Source of the DNA: Octopus vulgaris
Taxonomy: Eukaryota
Assembly (NCBI GenBank): GCA_951406725.2
Contig: OX597818.1
Span: 81,778,001 to 81,842,000 of the forward strand
Length of the DNA: 64,000 bases
Direction: 5' to 3'
Shown: positions 7,416-50,605 of the stretch, piece by piece
Position numbering within the stretch: position 1 is the first letter of the stretch
How the letters are laid out: every line of letters begins with the position of its first letter
Program-made: the position numbers and the translations under genes
The notes under the pieces: model-generated
Database searches by the model: none
Told to the model about the DNA's origin: nothing
The model's input: the letters and a program-made list of their open reading frames with translations, nothing else

Positions 7416-7857
7416 GTCTGTCTGTCTTGTTATTTCGCTACCTCAGTGCCTACACCTCTTGTACTTCTTTCCCAGTCTCTATACTATATTGTCTCTGCCT
7501 CTTATATTCTCTAGCACTTTCTAGCACACCTCCAGCATGTAGTTGCATTCTCTGTCTCATCATCTCACTCACACTCTTTCCCGCTGTCTGTATATATGAG
7601 AAAAGTATAGACAGACATATATACATAGATGTATTATCAAATATAGCTTTGATATACATGTGGAACGATAAAAGAAATCTCTAAACTACGAGTATAGTGA
7701 TAGAGATCCTCAGTTCAAATTCTCTGGACATTGATAAAAATTATTAAAATTTAATATGCCAATGAATTTTGAAGTAATAAAATCATTTATACCTGAAACA
7801 ATTACAGGAGTATAAATAGTAGTTTTCTTAATTTACAACTATATTCCAGATCCATGC

Positions 7858-9591
<1,734 letters not shown>

Positions 9592-10958: not shown

Positions 10959-11360
10959 TAATTAAATTAGAACGAATGGACCCATTAGTATAATTATACC
11001 TAAAATTACCAAGAGGTTAAGGAGATAGACAAAGAACATGCTGTTTCACTCCAGTAAGTTCTATGCTAGAGTGAGACAGCATATTCTTTGTCTATCTCTT
11101 AACCTCTTGGAGATTTTAGGTATAATTAAATTCTATGTCTTTGTGCAGCTGAAGATTGCTCTGCATTTGAAATTGATATAATGATTGAATTATTCAATTA
11201 AAAATGCAGTTGCATGAAACGATCGTACTGCATTACCTCTGGATATCCTTGTTGCGTATTTTGATTTTAATCACATTACTTTGAAATTGTATGGATACTA
11301 CCGTACTAAATTCTGGTGCCTCATCTTAAGTACCATATTCATCTGAATCTAAATTTTTGC
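10953..11360 (+). mobile_element. PLE pLTR-like unit in a TA tract, with 5' fold-back hairpin and HHR
   Basis: Inverted arms of about 65 bp spanning 10991-11128; homologous to 45325-45520; flanked by (TA)n on both sides. Confidence 0.75.
11143..11233 (+). ncRNA. Type I hammerhead ribozyme
   Basis: GTGCAG-CTGAAGA-stem II (CTGCATTT...AAATGCAG)-GAAA-CGATCG (palindromic stem III)-TA-CTGCAT. Confidence 0.8.
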
Positions 11361-14599: not shown

Positions 14600-15830
14600 A
14601 CGGAGCAGAGCCTTTTGAAAAAATGGGATTATGTTGAAATGACATTGGGTAGGCACGTGAGACACGTGGTCTCAGCCATCGATCAATTATGAATCTAACG
14701 TTAAGGTTGTGTGGGCAATGCTGGAGGTATATTCTTTACATTGTGCAAATCATGTAGCGCTGATGGCGACGTTGGAGTTAATAAAGATTCAATGTTTTAA
14801 GGTGGTCCCAATAATCAAGAGAAAGTTATGCCCTTAAATTTTATAGTCAATGCTCTCCGGCTGTGGGGAGACCACAGGGAGCTGCTGCAGTATTCTAAGT
14901 GTGAACGTACACAGAATAAGAAGAGGGGAATGTTGATATCTTGCTGTCTATAGCAGAAAGATATGAGGTTCCGGGAGCTCATCACGCGAGTCATATCCAC
15001 TTTGTTGTTGATGTGGGTACTCCAGCTGAGATTGTTGTCAATAGTTAACAGCTAAGTCTCTGATATTATTGGATGCTGTGAGTAGTTCCCTTGTAGGAAG
15101 TAAATATAGATATTTGAGAGCCGTTTTTATTCCAAAATGCAACAATTCAAATTTTACCTCCTTTAACCACGTTTTGTTTTTATCCGCCTATTGGCTTATA
15201 GCATGTAGATCGGACTGTTGTTCGGTCATCTTCTCCATTGGTAATTTCCTTGACCTTACAATCATATCGAATATATTTATGTTGCTGTGGTTGATGACGT
15301 TTAGGATATCGTTTATATAGACTAAAAAGAGAAACAGGCCCAAAACAGTCACCTGAAGGACCCACTGGTGAATTTTGCTGGACTTTAGTGGATACCAGTC
15401 ACAACATGTTGTGATCTAGTAAAGATTGTTTGCCAACATAACATGGCAGTCCTGGTTTAGGACGAATGTTGCTGTAATTTATCCCCAGGAAACGATCTGT
15501 GTCCTTACATTTTCGAAAATGTAAGGACACAGATCGTGTCGTATAGCCAGCTGAAGACGATGTTTCTTGGGGATAAATTACAGCAACATTCGTCCTAAAC
15601 CATGACTGCCATGTTATGCTGGCAAGTACTGTTGCTGAATATCTCACGCTGTGAGATTGAAAAATAGTAATTTTCTAATGTTGTGTTCTGTTCACCAGGA
15701 AATACTTTATCTAGTGTGGCAATTTTCCACGGCTTCCAATATTTGACAATTTTGACAAGAGAATAATATGGTTGACTTCGTTGAATACAGTATAGGGATA
15801 ATGATCCTTCCCGCGTCATACGGACTCACA
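14600..15830 (-). mobile_element. Degenerate CR1/Jockey-group LINE RT and 3' fragment
   Basis: VRSHLEYCS..LWSPH (ORF 14815..15000), a G.PQG..LGP-like remnant near 15335-15370 and YS.TKST..QLL remnants near 15760-15800. Confidence 0.6.
15430..15625. repeat. Nested inverted repeat (64-bp outer arms, 46-bp perfect inner palindrome)
   Basis: 15430-15493 versus 15562-15625; the inner palindrome 15492-15537 is centred on TTTTCGAAAA. Confidence 0.9.
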
Positions 15831-16765: not shown

Positions 16766-16795
16766 GAATACATGCGAATGTACATACATACATAC

Positions 16796-16832
<37 letters not shown>

Positions 16833-16835
<3 letters not shown>

Positions 16836-17144
16836 ATAAAACAGTAAGATAACAAAAGAAAGAAAGAGACCTCAATATTATGTAAATAGAGGAAATTTAT
16901 CTATACAATATGTTACATTACTCGGTAGTCAAGATAAAACTCTGAGTTTCAGATGCCGAAGGGAAATCCACAACACCATCTCTTCGGTTATCTGGCTATT
17001 TGAAAACGTTATGAAAAAATACGGTATTTTTTCATAACGTTTTCAAATAGCCAGATAACCGAAGAGATGGTGTTGTGGATTTCCCCTTCGGCATCTGAAA
17101 CTCAGAGTTTTATTTTGACTACCGAGTAATGTAACATATTGTAT

Positions 17145-17149
<5 letters not shown>
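16833..17149. mobile_element. Fold-back pLTR-like insertion in a TA tract (125-bp arms), with an HHR-like motif in each arm
   Basis: 16898-17022 is the reverse complement of 17024-17149 (1 mismatch, 1 indel); motif AGATAA-CCGAAGA-GATG..CATCT-GAAA-CTCAGAG-TT-TTAT(C/T)T at 17053-17115 (+) and 16932-16993 (-). Confidence 0.85.
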
Positions 17150-17195
<46 letters not shown>

Positions 17196-17340
17196 TACAT
17201 TTATATATATATACATATATATGTATATATACATATATATAAACATATGTATATTATATATATATATATATATGCATAATATATACATACATAGATATAT
17301 ATATATATTATATCACATATATATATATATATATATATAT

Positions 17341-23162: not shown

Positions 23163-24452
23163 CGAGGGGCGTTGAATAAGTAATGCCTCTGACCCACTTC
23201 CCATACCATAGCAGTAGAGCAACGAAACTTGGCATGGTTATTATTCTTTTTCTACATAGGAAGTACCAAGTGTTACGCATTTCTCCCATTGGTTGATACA
23301 GCTCTGAAGACCGTTTTTGTAGAAGACCCCAGCTTTGACCTCCAACCACGACGTGACTTCAGAAATCAATGCTGCATCATCTGGGAAACCCTTTCCTTTC
23401 AAAAACAACTTCATGGCTGTGAAGAGGTGAAAATCAGAGGGTGCAAGGTCAAGGGGGATGGGGGAGGAGTTCATAGCCGCACTCCTGCGCTTCTGATCTG
23501 GCGACAAGCGAGTTGTGGACCGGAGCGTTATCCTGCAGGACGAGGATGCATTTGCTGATCTTGCCCCGCTTCTTGATTTTGATAGCTTCTCTTAATTTCC
23601 TCAAAAGTGAAGCATAATAGGCTCCTGTAATTGGGGTACCCTTTGCCAGGAAATCTGTCATCACTACTCCGTCCTGATCCCACAAGACTGTGAGCATGAC
23701 CTTGCCAGCGGAGGGCTGCACCCTTGCCTTCTTTGGAGGAGGTGAGTCACGGTGCTTCCACTGCATTGACTGGGCTTTGGTCTCTGGATCATAGTGATGG
23801 ATCCAGGTTTCATCCTGTGTAATCAGTCTTTTGAAAAATTTTGACTCATCTTCTTGGCACATCTCCAAATTCAGCCTCGAGCACTCGATGCGTTCTTGCT
23901 TCTCGAAAGGTGTGAGCAGCCTGGGAATCCATCTGGCAGACACCTTTTGCATATGCAAATGGTCATGAATGATAGTTTTCACACACCCGGTACTGATCTT
24001 GACCTCATGGGCTACTTGGCGAATAGTTATGCGTCGATCTTCCAAAATGGCAGCCTCAACTTGACGGACAGATGGCTCATCAATGGCAGAAGTGGGGCGA
24101 CCAGATCTGGGAGCTGTTTCCACAGAGTTCCGACCATGTTTGAATTTACGATGCCAGCGTTTTACAAGGTCATATGATGGGGCATCATCACCATAAGTTA
24201 CTTTGATTTCATCAAAAGTCTCCCGTGGTGTTCGTCCTTTCAAATACAAAAACCGGATCACTGCTCGACACTCAACAGGCTCCATTTCACACTTGACTCA
24301 GTTCAAACACCTGTAAATCAGAAACCACAGTTAGTTCAGAGCTGTAATTTTCCACTTAATCTATAGAGATATGAATAAGTCCACATGCAAAATGTCAGCT
24401 GGATCAAACAGCTGCAAATAGGTCAGGGGTATTACTTATTGAACGTCCCTCG
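23163..24452 (-). mobile_element. Near-complete mariner transposon (about 1.29 kb, irritans-like) with TA TSD
   Basis: TIRs CGAGGGGCGTTGAATAAGTAATGCCTCTGACC and GGTCAGGGGTATTACTTATTGAACGTCCCTCG; TA at 23161-62 and 24453-54. Confidence 0.95.
23241..24285 (-). pseudogene. Mariner DD34D transposase with one frameshift
   Basis: HTH N-terminus, WIPRLL, TQDETW, QDNAPVH; frameshift at about 23455 in HPP/(YSP)DLAPSDFHLF joining ORFs 23449..24285 and 23241..23507. Confidence 0.93.
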
Positions 24453-45099: not shown

Positions 45100-45519
45100 G
45101 AGAAAGTTAGTCTTATATCTGTTCCTGGGATATTAGGGATATCACTTCATCGTAGATTATGTGAGATGGTTAAATGGAGGGACATATTAGAGTTCAATAT
45201 AAGGAGTTATTTTCGAAAAGGAACGAAAGAAGGCGTATGTAGGGATGTAAGAGAATGAATGTTGAAATAAAAATAAAAAAATATATAAAGAGGTTATAGT
45301 TGAGTTAAAACTGTGATGTTGTTGATAGAGCATGTTCTTTGTCTATCTACTTATCCCCTTTGTGGTTTTGGATAATAAGAAAACTATACAAATGAATCCT
45401 TCAAATTGAACTAAATTCTATATTTTATGCAGCTGAAGATTGCTCTACATTTCAAATTGATGGAATCGCATGAAAAGATCGTACTGCATTACCTGGATAT
45501 CCTTGTTGCTTATTTTGAT

Positions 45520-45520
<1 letters not shown>
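45100..45520 (+). mobile_element. Naiad-like PLE 3' end plus pLTR with HHR
   Basis: RLCEM.KW..ILEF...KRNE..GVCR remnant (C.LC..EK...LN.R.E...C.H type); HHR at 45427-45489 ATGCAG-CTGAAGA..GAAA-AGATCG-TA-CTGCAT, homologous to 11143-11233. Confidence 0.65.
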
Positions 45521-45551
<31 letters not shown>

Positions 45552-45789
45552 TAAGGGTAGAAATTGATATTTATCAATTAAGACCAGTGGTCTAGCATAT
45601 TAAAAAAGAATCCGAAGATTAAAATATTTATATATACCAATTAAGGACTGAACACGAAAAGTGGACAGTCAACATGCTAGATATAGACGTCAAATCGTCA
45701 TTCTCCACAAAAGATTATGTTCTCAGATCAAACTCAACACAAAACCATAGCAATAAACAAGTGAAAAATATACGAAATAAAATAATTAC

Positions 45790-45854
45790 CCATGTACTAA
45801 CTTAGTTTCAGCTGTTATTTTCCGCAAGGAAAACTGCAGCCATCATCAGCATGG
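45790..45854 (-). ncRNA. Type I HHR, array A copy 1
   Basis: CCATG-CTGATGA-TGGCTG..TTTTCC-TTGC-GGAAAA..CAGCT-GAAA-CTAAGTTAG-TA-CATGG. Confidence 0.88.
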
Positions 45855-46320
45855 TCCGTTATAAATGTAATTTGCTGGACTAAATGCAAACACGATACCG
45901 AAATATCGCGCGCATGGAGTTCAGCCTATTACATTTGAATATATCTTTCAAATGCCTTTACTTTGGCGCGTTGAGACCCGAGAAAACTAGCCTGCAGCTA
46001 ATAATTAGCAGCAGTTAATTTATCGGTTAGAGAACATTTATTTATATAAAATTAATTAAGGGTAGAAATTGATATTTATCATTAAGGGTAGAAATTGATA
46101 TTTATCAATTAAGACCAGTGGTCTAGCATATTAAAAAAGAATCCTAAGATTAAAATATTTATATATACCAATTAAGGACTGAACACGAAAAGTGGACAGT
46201 CAACATGCTAGATATAGACGTCAAATCGTCATTCTCCACAAAAGATTATGTTCTCAGATCAAACTCAACACAAAACCATAGCAATAAACAAGTGAAAAAT
46301 ATACGAAATAAAATAATTAC

Positions 46321-46385
46321 CCATGTACTAACTTAGTTTCAGCTGTTATTTTCCGCAAGGAAAACTGCAGCCATCATCAGCATGG
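46321..46385 (-). ncRNA. Type I HHR, array A copy 2
   Basis: Identical to copy 1. Confidence 0.88.
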
Positions 46386-46993
46386 TCCGTTATAAATGTA
46401 ATTTGCTGGACTAAATGCAAACACGATACCGAAATATCGCGTGCATGGAGTTCAGCCTATTACATTTGAATATATCTTTCAAATGCCTTTACTTTGGCGC
46501 GTTGAGACCCGAGAAAACTAGCCTGCAGCTAATAATTAGCAGCAGTTAATTTATCGGTTAGAGAACATTTATTTATATAAAATTAATTAAGGGTAGAAAT
46601 TGATATTTATCAATTAAGACCATATTAAGTCTATATCTAGCATGTTGACTGTCCACTTTTCGTGTTCAGTCCTTAATTGGTATATATAAATATTTTAATC
46701 TTCGGATTCTTTTTTAATATGCTAGACCACTGGTCTTAATTGATAAATATCAATTTCTACCCTTAATGATAAATATCAATTTCTACCCTTAATTAATTTT
46801 ATATAAATAAATGTTCTCTAACCGATAAATTAACTGCTGCTAATTATTAGCTGCAGGCTAGTTTTCTCGGGTCTCAACGCGCCAAAGTAAAGGCATTTGA
46901 AAGATATATTCAAATGTAATAGGCTGAACTCCATGCACGCGATATTTCGGTATCGTGTTTGCATTTAGTCCAGCAAATTACATTTATAACGGA

Positions 46994-47058
46994 CCATGCT
47001 GATGATGGCTGCAGTTTTCCTTGCGGAAAATAACAGCTGAAACTAAGTTAGTACATGG
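46994..47058 (+). ncRNA. Type I HHR, array A inverted arm
   Basis: CTGATGA at 46999-47005, GAAA at 47039-47042, predicted cleavage after GTA at 47053. Confidence 0.88.
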
Positions 47059-47228
47059 GTAATTATTTTATTTCGTATATTTTTCACTTGTTTATTGCTA
47101 TGGTTTTGTGTTGAGTTTGATCTGAGAACATAATCTTTTGTGGAGAATGACGATTTGACGTCTATATCTAGCATGTTGACTGTCCACTTTTCGTGTTCAG
47201 TCCTTAATTGGTATATATATATATATAT

Positions 47229-47500
47229 AAATTAGTAAATAAATGGCACAACTAAGTACCGATATTTACTGGAAATAGCGAACGTAAAAATACGACGCTA
47301 ATGTGTAGCTTCACCGCGTATGTATTAGCAAAAATGCGTGTGTGCAACAAATTAGAGAAAAAAAACCGTCTTACCTCCAGGGAGAACATCTGAAAGATAA
47401 AACACCCGCAAAATGATAATGTGGTACCTGCAGGTTTCAGGTTTTACAAGATATGTCTCTCACCCATATTTTGTTTTACCTTCATCAGCCAAACATATGA
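47229..47500 (-). mobile_element. Third HHR-bearing unit (single, 5'-truncated) between arrays A and B
   Basis: TA-flanked, with its 3' end at the left TA tract; terminal hairpin GGTAC..GTGCC resembles GGTGC..GTACC at 11326-11345. Confidence 0.65.
47421..47492 (-). ncRNA. Type I HHR
   Basis: TGG-CTGATGA-AGGT...ACCT-GAAA-CCTGCAGG (palindrome)-TA-CCA. Confidence 0.8.
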
Positions 47501-47807
47501 TATATATTTGTATGTATATATATAATTAATTAATAAGGGTGAGAGAATTAGATACTAATTTAATAGTATATTTATTCCACACCAAGTGGCCTAGTGCTAC
47601 GAGAAACCTGGATTATTATAATATTTTATAACATATTACAATATTTTCACAAAATAAATATAAGAGAGTGTTCACTATATTGATCACTCTAGCACCAGTT
47701 AATCCAAGAGGTTTCAACCACGAAAAATACATGTTTCCCATGAAAGCCGGTACGACTGTTAGCTCACACGGACAGGGCAAATAAAAAATAACAAAAATAC
47801 AGATTAT

Positions 47808-47885
47808 CTTGGGACAATTGTTTCGCTATTAATGAATTAAATGTAATATTACTTACAGCAATCCATTTGTAGCTCTTCAGCCAAG
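47808..47885 (-). ncRNA. Type I HHR, array B (further minus-strand copies at 48343-48420 and 48878-48955)
   Basis: CTTGG-CTGAAGA-GCTA...TAGC-GAAA-CAATTG-TC-CCAAG; canonical core with a GUC cleavage triplet. Confidence 0.92.
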
Positions 47886-49297
47886 GCTATCTTGATGAAA
47901 TCCACTCAATCACACGCCAGATTTTACCATAACGATAATTACGCGTGCGGTTCAATTGATTACATCGGACGTTATAATTCAAATGCCCCAACCAACAGCG
48001 CGCCAAACTCTCACGGAAAACAAAATACAGCATTTAGAAATAAATGCAGCATAATTATAATTAATTAATAAGGGTGAGAGAATTAGATACTAATTTAATA
48101 GTATATTTATTCCACACCAAGTGGCCTAGTGCTACGAGAAACCTGGATTATTATAATATTTTATAACATATTACAATATTTTCACAAAATAAATATAAGA
48201 GAGTGTTCACTATATTGATCACTCTAGCACCAGTTAATCCAAGAGGTTTCAACCACGAAAAATACATGTTTCCCATGAAAGCCGGTACGACTGTTAGCTC
48301 ACACGGACAGGGCAAATAAAAAATAACAAAAATACAGATTATCTTGGGACAATTGTTTCGCTATTAATGAATTAAATGTAATATTACTTACAGCAATCCA
48401 TTTGTAGCTCTTCAGCCAAGGCTATCTTGATGAAATCCACTCAATCACACGCCAGATTTTACCATAACGATAATTACGCGTGCGGTTCAATTGATTACAT
48501 CGGACGTTATAATTCAAATGCCCCAACCAACAGCGCGCCAAACTCTCACGGAAAACAAAATACAGCATTTAGAAATAAATGCAGCATAATTATAATTAAT
48601 TAATAAGGGTGAGAGAATTAGATACTAATTTAATAGTATATTTATTCCACACCAAGTGGCCTAGTGCTACGAGAAACCTGGATTATTATAATATTTTATA
48701 ACATATTACAATATTTTCACAAAATAAATATAAGAGAGTGTTCACTATATTGATCACTCTAGCACCAGTTAATCCAAGAGGTTTCAACCACGAAAAATAC
48801 ATGTTTCCCATGAAAGCCGGTACGACTGTTAGCTCACACGGACAGGGCAAATAAAAAATAACAAAAATACAGATTATCTTGGGACAATTGTTTCGCTATT
48901 AATGAATTAAATGTAATATTACTTACAGCAATCCATTTGTAGCTCTTCAGCCAAGGCTATCTTGATGAAATCCACTCAATCACACGCCAGATTTTACCAT
49001 AACGATAATTACGCGTGCGGTTCAATTGATTACATCGGACGTTATAATTCAAATGCCCCAACCAACAGCGCGCCAAACTCTCACGGAAAACAAAATTATT
49101 ATTAATTATAATTATTAATTAATTATAATTATGCTGCATTTATTTCTAAATGCTGTATTTTGTTTTCCGTGAGAGTTTGGCGCGCTGTTGGTTGGGGCAT
49201 TTGAATTATAACGTCCGATGTAATCAATTGAACCGCACGCGTAATTATCGTTATGGTAAAATCTGGCGTGTGATTGAGTGGATTTCATCAAGATAGC

Positions 49298-49375
49298 CTT
49301 GGCTGAAGAGCTACAAATGGATTGCTGTAAGTAATATTACATTTAATTCATTAATAGCGAAACAATTGTCCCAAG
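49298..49375 (+). ncRNA. Type I HHR, array B inverted arm (further copies at 49833-49910 and 50368-50445)
   Basis: CTGAAGA at 49303-49309, GAAA at 49359-49362, palindromic CAATTG, predicted cleavage after GTC at 49370. Confidence 0.92.
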
Positions 49376-50605
49376 ATAATCTGTATTTTTGTTATTTTTT
49401 ATTTGCCCTGTCCGTGTGAGCTAACAGTCGTACCGGCTTTCATGGGAAACATGTATTTTTCGTGGTTGAAACCTCTTGGATTAACTGGTGCTAGAGTGAT
49501 CAATATAGTGAACACTCTCTTATATTTATTTTGTGAAAATATTGTAATATGTTATAAAATATTATAATAATCCAGGTTTCTCGTAGCACTAGGCCACTTG
49601 GTGTGGAATAAATATACTATTAAATTAGTATCTAATTCTCTCACCCTTATTAATTAATTATAATTATGCTGCATTTATTTCTAAATGCTGTATTTTGTTT
49701 TCCGTGAGAGTTTGGCGCGCTGTTGGTTGGGGCATTTGAATTATAACGTCCGATGTAATCAATTGAACCGCACGCGTAATTATCGTTATGGTAAAATCTG
49801 GCGTGTGATTGAGTGGATTTCATCAAGATAGCCTTGGCTGAAGAGCTACAAATGGATTGCTGTAAGTAATATTACATTTAATTCATTAATAGCGAAACAA
49901 TTGTCCCAAGATAATCTGTATTTTTGTTATTTTTTATTTGCCCTGTCCGTGTGAGCTAACAGTCGTACCGGCTTTCATGGGAAACATGTATTTTTCGTGG
50001 TTGAAACCTCTTGGATTAACTGGTGCTAGAGTGATCAATATAGTGAACACTCTCTTATATTTATTTTGTGAAAATATTGTAATATGTTATAAAATATTAT
50101 AATAATCCAGGTTTCTCGTAGCACTAGGCCACTTGGTGTGGAATAAATATACTATTAAATTAGTATCTAATTCTCTCACCCTTATTAATTAATTATAATT
50201 ATGCTGCATTTATTTCTAAATGCTGTATTTTGTTTTCCGTGAGAGTTTGGCGCGCTGTTGGTTGGGGCATTTGAATTATAACGTCCGATGTAATCAATTG
50301 AACCGCACGCGTAATTATCGTTATGGTAAAATCTGGCGTGTGATTGAGTGGATTTCATCAAGATAGCCTTGGCTGAAGAGCTACAAATGGATTGCTGTAA
50401 GTAATATTACATTTAATTCATTAATAGCGAAACAATTGTCCCAAGATAATCTGTATTTTTGTTATTTTTTATTTGCCCTGTCCGTGTGAGCTAACAGTCG
50501 TACCGGCTTTCATGGGAAACATGTATTTTTCGTGGTTGAAACCTCTTGGATTAACTGGTGCTAGAGTGATCAATATAGTGAACACTCTCTTATATTTATT
50601 TTTAT

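Follow-up and report, generated by a model that had tools for sequence, protein, structure and literature searches.

Paired fixed start sites in a hammerhead-bearing octopus repeat point to priming from both ends of the target

How does a reverse-transcribed repeat come to carry tandem units that face a shorter, inverted set of the same units? We addressed this question at one insertion, 45541-47217 of a 64,000-nt window of the Octopus vulgaris genome (GenBank assembly GCA_951406725.2, contig OX597818.1, positions 81,778,001 to 81,842,000; all positions without a contig name refer to this window), and among its relatives in the 2.8-Gb, 227-contig host assembly. An earlier, sequence-only reading of the window held that a cDNA primed at the left TA tract had folded back, copied itself and rejoined the target. 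Family-wide counts suggest instead that the 3′ ends of the two target strands act as primers on a single RNA, each at its own fixed site, a mechanism to which we give a probability of about three in four on sequence evidence.

The anatomy described in the earlier reading was borne out: 2.1 tandem units of 505 nt (arm A) and an inverted arm (arm B) lie between two TA tracts (Table 1). Differences between the tandem units are confined to 45614/46145 and 45911/46442. Arm B (46629-47211) is the reverse complement of 45637-46219 with mismatches solely at 45911 and 46145, and continues into TA; the host flanks outside the insertion show no mirror symmetry. TATATA occurs exactly twice per unit, 93 nt apart, at what we call start sites A and B, and past its TATA arm A extends for 1082 nt and arm B for 583 nt. 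Because the polarity of a hammerhead motif in the unit places the RNA sense of arm A on the minus strand, its plus strand would be cDNA grown from the left TA tract; by the same polarity each outer end corresponds to an RNA 3′ end, and the insertion is therefore head-to-head. Both ends lie within (TA)n, leaving no delimitable target-site duplication, and the window as a whole is rich in microsatellites. The earlier proposal that the insertion genuinely arose by retrotransposition, with priming at a TA tract, is supported. Modest support for the inversion comes from one 63-letter contig (run X1, depth 53) that matches 46594-46656 without difference across the inversion centre, with 29 and 28 letters beside the central insert compared to a bridging rule of 31 letters; X1 may be the source sample.

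Across the family, outer ends fall almost always at the two TATATA sites of the unit, A opening the unit and B lying 93 nt further in, with 353 exact termini at A and 619 at B genome-wide. We took a census of 98 loci, comprising a first set of this locus and 37 others visible among the matches listed, and a second set of 29 paired loci, 11 of 29 unpaired A ends and 20 of 65 unpaired B ends. Seventy-nine loci were head-to-head, 18 single-armed and one complex. Among the head-to-head loci, 77 of 79 combined A with B and two combined A with another start, while A+A and B+B were each absent. Facing end pairs on contigs C1, C2 and part of C3 (63 A and 100 B ends listed) gave 33 A+B, one B+B and no A+A, and the apparent B+B pair (L086) was on inspection A+B with an expanded internal TA. 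Single-armed copies started at A in 8 of 18 cases and at B in the other 10. Site B is thus a second start site, fixed in position and able to start copies by itself, and the earlier view of an inverted arm variably truncated and rejoined by chance TA microhomology was not supported. An unrelated hammerhead family with a 535-nt unit, sampled as 20 loci from the best matches plus the window copy, behaved alike: 15 of 16 two-armed copies carry one end of each type, one is aberrant, and five copies are single-armed. Two loci of the 505-nt family (L061 and L107) have a B micro-arm of ~10 nt, and in L039 a start at A was aborted and then repeated.

Priming from both ends at A and B predicts this pairing rule and also that either arm may be the longer. 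Of the 77 A+B loci, arm A was longer in 26 and arm B was longer by at least one unit in 11. In 17 loci the two arms end at one template base to within 5 nt, compared to a mean of 2.4 and never more than 10 loci in 20,000 shuffles; such ends would occur if a trailing enzyme meets the same barrier as the leading one. Neither arm is possible as a copy of the other in 23 loci (16 by at least 72 nt, 7 by 7-22 nt), and in 6 the arms have no sequence in common. We rejected the possibility that unequal arms are palindromes eroded later, since there was no age difference, private substitutions amounting to 0.77% in the unequal-arm class and 0.84% in the palindromic class (p = 0.83).

Centre junctions, examined in 27 loci, comprised 12 overlaps of 1-8 nt, four blunt joins and 11 inserts of 1-19 nt, two of which amount to a mismatch near the junction. 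The 6-nt insert at the present locus can be read, as it was earlier, as a switch that skips 11 nt, but extra letters at 11 of 27 centres make it nothing special. Among centres where both arms stop at the same position, 7 of 21 have no spacer and at least three fall on short template palindromes; zero-spacer centres on template palindromes are expected if two identical 3′ ends anneal. Inner ends concentrate at unit positions 180-219 (44 of 172), and most copies stop short of the hammerhead. That the hammerhead cut forms the element boundary was rejected, as none of the 172 inner ends lies within 5 nt of the cut (~4 expected if uniform). In L036, L116, L117 and L057 the arms stop at the same unit position with whole-unit differences of +1, +1, +1 and −3, which may mean that one enzyme overtook the other on a circle, that a cDNA started at B folded back, or that units were lost later.

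Sequence variants shared between the arms were surveyed in the same 27 loci over 15.6 kb of arm overlap. Forty-two variant positions occur in every covering unit and are common to both arms, eight of them private among these loci, which is expected if one monomeric template was read round and round; the pattern fits a monomeric circular RNA. We also found 84 unit-specific variants, of which the sole mirrored one is a 26-nt duplication at the present locus. None of the other 83 is mirrored, 26 of them coming from one degraded unit of L059, and testing other registers added a single case, a homopolymer change in L059. For the most part, unit-specific changes probably arose by mutation after insertion and therefore provide no test of self-copying, though arm-to-arm copying is shown to be rare. 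Unmirrored single bases were likewise set aside as a weak test of self-copying, since their density varies widely, from 0 in a neighbouring 535-nt element to 13 in L037. At L130 (G000:C23:44785300-44795290), one unit position has two common alleles that follow each other in no regular order along either arm, and the patterns of the two arms match in part, a hint of either a mosaic multimeric template or arm-to-arm copying.

The duplication itself was correctly described in the sequence-only reading. Its copies (46057-46080 and 46083-46106) stand at one arm A junction only, those at 45552 and 46588 lack the extra 26 nt, and it is mirrored in arm B at 46742-46791. It is also specific to the locus: the duplication junction occurs twice in the 2.8 Gb, both times in this insertion, compared to 262 exact occurrences of the normal junction. 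The two unmirrored bases (45911 and 46145) were likewise as reported, and both alleles are absent from the 97 other loci. A single case, the mirrored duplication supports a template history that the two arms share in register.

In the mechanism that we favour, a Penelope-like protein with reverse transcriptase and GIY-YIG domains would mobilise the non-autonomous hammerhead element in trans. A (TA)n tract would be cut on both strands, and one 3′ end would anneal to UAUA at site A and the other at site B of the same RNA, 93 nt apart; the ends are observed, and the priming follows from them only by inference. Two reverse transcriptases would then travel in the same direction, past one unit of a template that is either a circle or an uncut multimer, reading across the hammerhead cut, until each stopped alone or both stopped at one barrier, and the junctions suggest that the cDNA 3′ ends were then end-joined. 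The product would be a head-to-head insertion with a tail at one end only. Both arms of the present copy would carry the duplication in register because both enzymes copied a single molecule, which would be a multimeric RNA in which one junction was duplicated, or an RNA from whose end both enzymes jumped to A. We favour a template-borne duplication because both arms start in one and the same unit; the two unmirrored bases would be later mutations or changes made during one pass. Taken whole, with the duplication borne on the template, this account seems to us reasonably probable from the sequences at hand.

The same locus could have arisen by self-copying, akin to the self-priming hypothesis of PMC3846280: a cDNA started at A would have gained 26 nt by slippage, turned back near 46219, served as its own template and been joined to the target at B. 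A mirrored, genome-unique duplication is thereby explained in one step, arm B lies entirely inside the span of arm A, and the two unmirrored bases occur at the family's background density and are probably later; fold-back from B also fits L036, L116 and L117, in which B is longer by exactly one unit, and the L130 mosaic, where five of six positions agree, as read by eye, when shifted by one unit. Self-copying nevertheless predicts B+B products when a B-started cDNA folds back and A+A products when the copy reaches its origin, and neither was seen among the 79 head-to-head loci. The 23 loci noted above would be impossible without an extra deletion, arms with no common sequence could not arise at all, and B is itself a start site. 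The 3′ end of arm A would prime a snap-back poorly, being mismatched at 4 of 11 positions with the terminal base among them, and zero-spacer centres would need a loop of at most 2 nt. Self-copying is thus not supported as the mechanism of the family and is unlikely at this locus, where the arm lengths do allow it. Alternatively, priming from both ends may have been followed by copying at the DNA level, with the duplication arising in one arm and spreading to the other by repair of an intermediate or later conversion. At most loci the sequence suggests that a monomeric circle was copied, and such a circle could not carry a duplication at one junction; a tract of less than 234 nt would fit between the two unmirrored bases; such copying is rare, given 0 of 83 other unit-specific variants mirrored, and we think it improbable here.

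A protein dimer holding two RNA molecules, with one subunit always starting from A and the other from B, would account for the strict A+B pairing and for loci where all units of one arm carry variants that the other lacks (L036 and L047), but it does not readily explain the 17 same-base stops, the private variants shared between arms or the mirrored duplication, and is very unlikely. A fold-back artefact of assembly or reads is scarcely credible: although the inversion centre is spanned by one short contig that is possibly from the source sample, the flanks are unmirrored, the arms are separated by a 403-nt spacer and differ at two positions, and the ends obey a rule found in 77 loci. Several observations weigh against priming from both ends on a single RNA. 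Arm lengths are compatible with self-copying in 54 of 77 loci, including this one; deletion during integration could make self-copies unequal-armed with no age signal; and centres at the same end position also fit a tight fold-back, the interpretation given in PMC3846280. Whole units also seem to have been added or removed once copies had inserted, as variants are common to some units of one arm, and this weakens the length arguments for long copies. The arm-specific variants of L036 and L047 suggest two templates or later duplication. No donor copy with the 26-nt duplication exists elsewhere in the assembly, and, because only this one of 84 unit-specific variants is mirrored, multimeric templates are rarely evident and the locus is exceptional. 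In addition, comparison of the 505-nt unit with 30 reverse transcriptase and GIY-YIG loci (of 148 matches) gave no significant similarity (best E 0.045) and connected no mobilising protein to the element by sequence.

Priming of two strands on one RNA has a precedent in L1 twin priming, in which the RNA already being copied is also primed by the other target strand; short homology then joins the cDNAs and leaves an inversion. The octopus element is alike in that a second strand would prime the same RNA and the cDNAs be joined. In L1 the second site is variable and internal and the two cDNAs cover different parts; in the octopus that site does not vary, and overlap of the cDNAs yields an inverted duplication. 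Published in-vitro behaviour of the Anolis Poseidon element (PAc), a Penelope-like element, agrees with the favoured mechanism: PMC11167929 reports cutting and extension of both strands and models the enzyme as a dimer. There, too, two adjacent internal start sites bound the tail, and hammerhead cleavage is dispensable. In that work PAc starts without target homology and shows no strand difference in start site; both octopus sites are TATATA matches to the target, which counts against a shared mode of starting, and the two ends of an octopus insertion never use the same site. Neither a proposal nor a count of fixed two-end priming for Penelope insertions was found in the open-access literature searched.

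The insertion is very probably, on its sequence features, a non-LTR (long terminal repeat) retrozyme, a non-autonomous Penelope-type element. Stop-to-stop frames in 45541-47217 all fall short of 110 aa, and there is no open reading frame for reverse transcriptase plus GIY-YIG. The family is dispersed and young, with at least 174 matches (from 38 scored of 1651 candidates), many 99-100% identical. Tandem and inverted 5′-truncated arms with a one-sided tail, a Penelope-like layout, characterise 77 of 79 two-armed loci. The same genome does hold reverse transcriptase and GIY-YIG elements whose open frames are long (148 matches); L156 (G000:C16:20837296-20840559) belongs to a Penelope-like family with a reverse transcriptase, Cys linker and C-terminal GIY-YIG and many copies with 781-aa frames, and its 3′ region holds short tandem repeats in which a descriptor-type scan found no hammerhead. 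None of 12 frames in the window encodes a Penelope protein; a LINE-type (long interspersed nuclear element) zf-RVT domain and a mariner transposase were found instead.

Non-LTR retrozymes of metazoans, as described in passages of PMC7229834, PMC7761336 and bioRxiv 10.64898/2026.07.22.740005, are similarly non-coding tandem repeats of low GC with one type I hammerhead per unit and a weak helix III, and Penelope-like machinery has been proposed there to reverse-transcribe the circle in rolling fashion. The likeness here is one of sequence. The 505-nt monomer is longer than the ~300 nt typical of metazoan examples and lies outside the ~150-400 nt range typical, though not a strict criterion, of non-LTR retrozymes. 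Head-to-head arms, paired fixed start sites and TA targeting are features of the octopus element that those retrozyme passages do not mention ('inverted' is absent from PMC7229834). Penelope-like insertions with an inverted pLTR (pseudo-long terminal repeat), in the parts of PMC8557442 and PMC3846280 that describe them, share partial tandems, an adjacent inverted 5′-truncated copy, a one-sided tail, palindromes at the inverted junction and, in some clades, (TA)n targeting; they differ from the present insertion, which has no open reading frame and a tail of ~93 nt compared to 30-40 nt. Their tandem and inverted structure has been called undefined in mechanism (PMC8557442), and the inverted copies have been ascribed to self-priming (PMC3846280).

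The hammerhead motif, read by hand, is present in both units of arm A and in arm B, and is intact in 141 of 153 family copies. Copy 3 comprises a 5-bp stem I (46994-46998/47054-47058), a core (46999-47005), an extra U, stem II, GAAA (47039-47042) and a 4-bp stem III; core and cut site follow the hammerhead core motif. Rfam gave no hammerhead match on 251 nt (46900-47150) and, among the best 150 of 295 matches on the whole window, only miRNA-type noise. A descriptor scan for hammerheads also missed the motif, because the extra U precedes stem II. The hammerhead fold (−17.4) lies 2 kcal/mol above the minimum fold (−19.4).

Table 1. Positions of the parts of the insertion in the window, with strand where assigned
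Feature	Position	Strand	Remark
Left target (TA)n tract	45520..45543		End overlaps start site A (TATATA at unit junction)
Arm A	45541..46622	RNA sense −	2 x 505-nt units, 26-nt duplication and 46 nt
Tail (~93 nt), start site A to start site B	45544..45636	−	Missing at the outer end of arm B
Type I hammerhead motif, copy 1	45790..45854	−	Hand-read; predicted cut between 45795 and 45794
Private single-base variant, unmirrored	45911..45911		In 0 of 97 other loci
Tandem pair forming the 26-nt duplication	46057..46106		Just inside site A of second unit; AATTAAG repeated at bounds
Private single-base variant, unmirrored	46145..46145		In 0 of 97 other loci
Part of arm A unpaired with any mirror (inverted-repeat spacer)	46220..46622		
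Type I hammerhead motif, copy 2	46321..46385	−	Hand-read
6-nt insert at head-to-head junction	46623..46628		
Arm B (inverted)	46629..47211	RNA sense +	Inner end at centre of the unit's GACGTC palindrome (q148); outer end at start site B
26-nt duplication as mirrored in arm B	46742..46791		
Type I hammerhead motif, copy 3	46994..47058	+	Hand-read; predicted cut after 47053 (GUA)
Right target (TA)n tract	47212..47229		Overlaps start site B (TATATATA)

In this part of the window, four hammerhead elements are stacked within 5 kb. To the right, a high-copy repeat (47230-47500) extends from the TA tract of arm B and has a hammerhead-like motif on the minus strand near 47482; it is probably a third, truncated element of hammerhead type. 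Beyond it lies the 535-nt hammerhead multimer (47521-50602), head-to-head with identical arms, its own two end sites ~130 nt apart and one private allele in all six units of both arms. The 535-nt and 505-nt units are unrelated in sequence except for a similar AT-rich start. The left flank (45409-45523) ends in a degenerate plus-strand hammerhead adjoining the TA tract, and an intact motif related to it is found at 11149-11227 (within 11124-11269) and in L158. Elsewhere, the LINE-type frame with zf-RVT occupies 7832-9217 (+) and the mariner transposase frame 23449-24297 (−), and smaller inverted repeats at 16788-17252, 15430-15625 and 10991-11128 are possibly MITE-like (miniature inverted-repeat transposable element) or short fold-back insertions.

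The element itself is of an ordinary kind; what its family offers is hundreds of natural products in which the A+B rule, same-base stops and arms with no common sequence separate the models. The formation of tandem, inverted and tailed Penelope-like insertions, whose mechanism has been called undefined (PMC8557442) or proposed to be self-priming (PMC3846280), thereby becomes countable and testable, and the family counts connect to the pair of start sites observed in vitro (PMC11167929). It is an even bet whether Penelope-like head-to-head insertions with a one-sided tail would generally arise from one complex that carries two reverse transcriptases in tandem from two fixed sites along a single RNA, and around it if that RNA is circular; palindromic centres would then be annealed identical cDNA ends rather than traces of self-priming, and the present locus a rare case of a multimeric template. 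The insertion anatomy ties retrozymes to Penelope machinery and supplies short RNA substrates.
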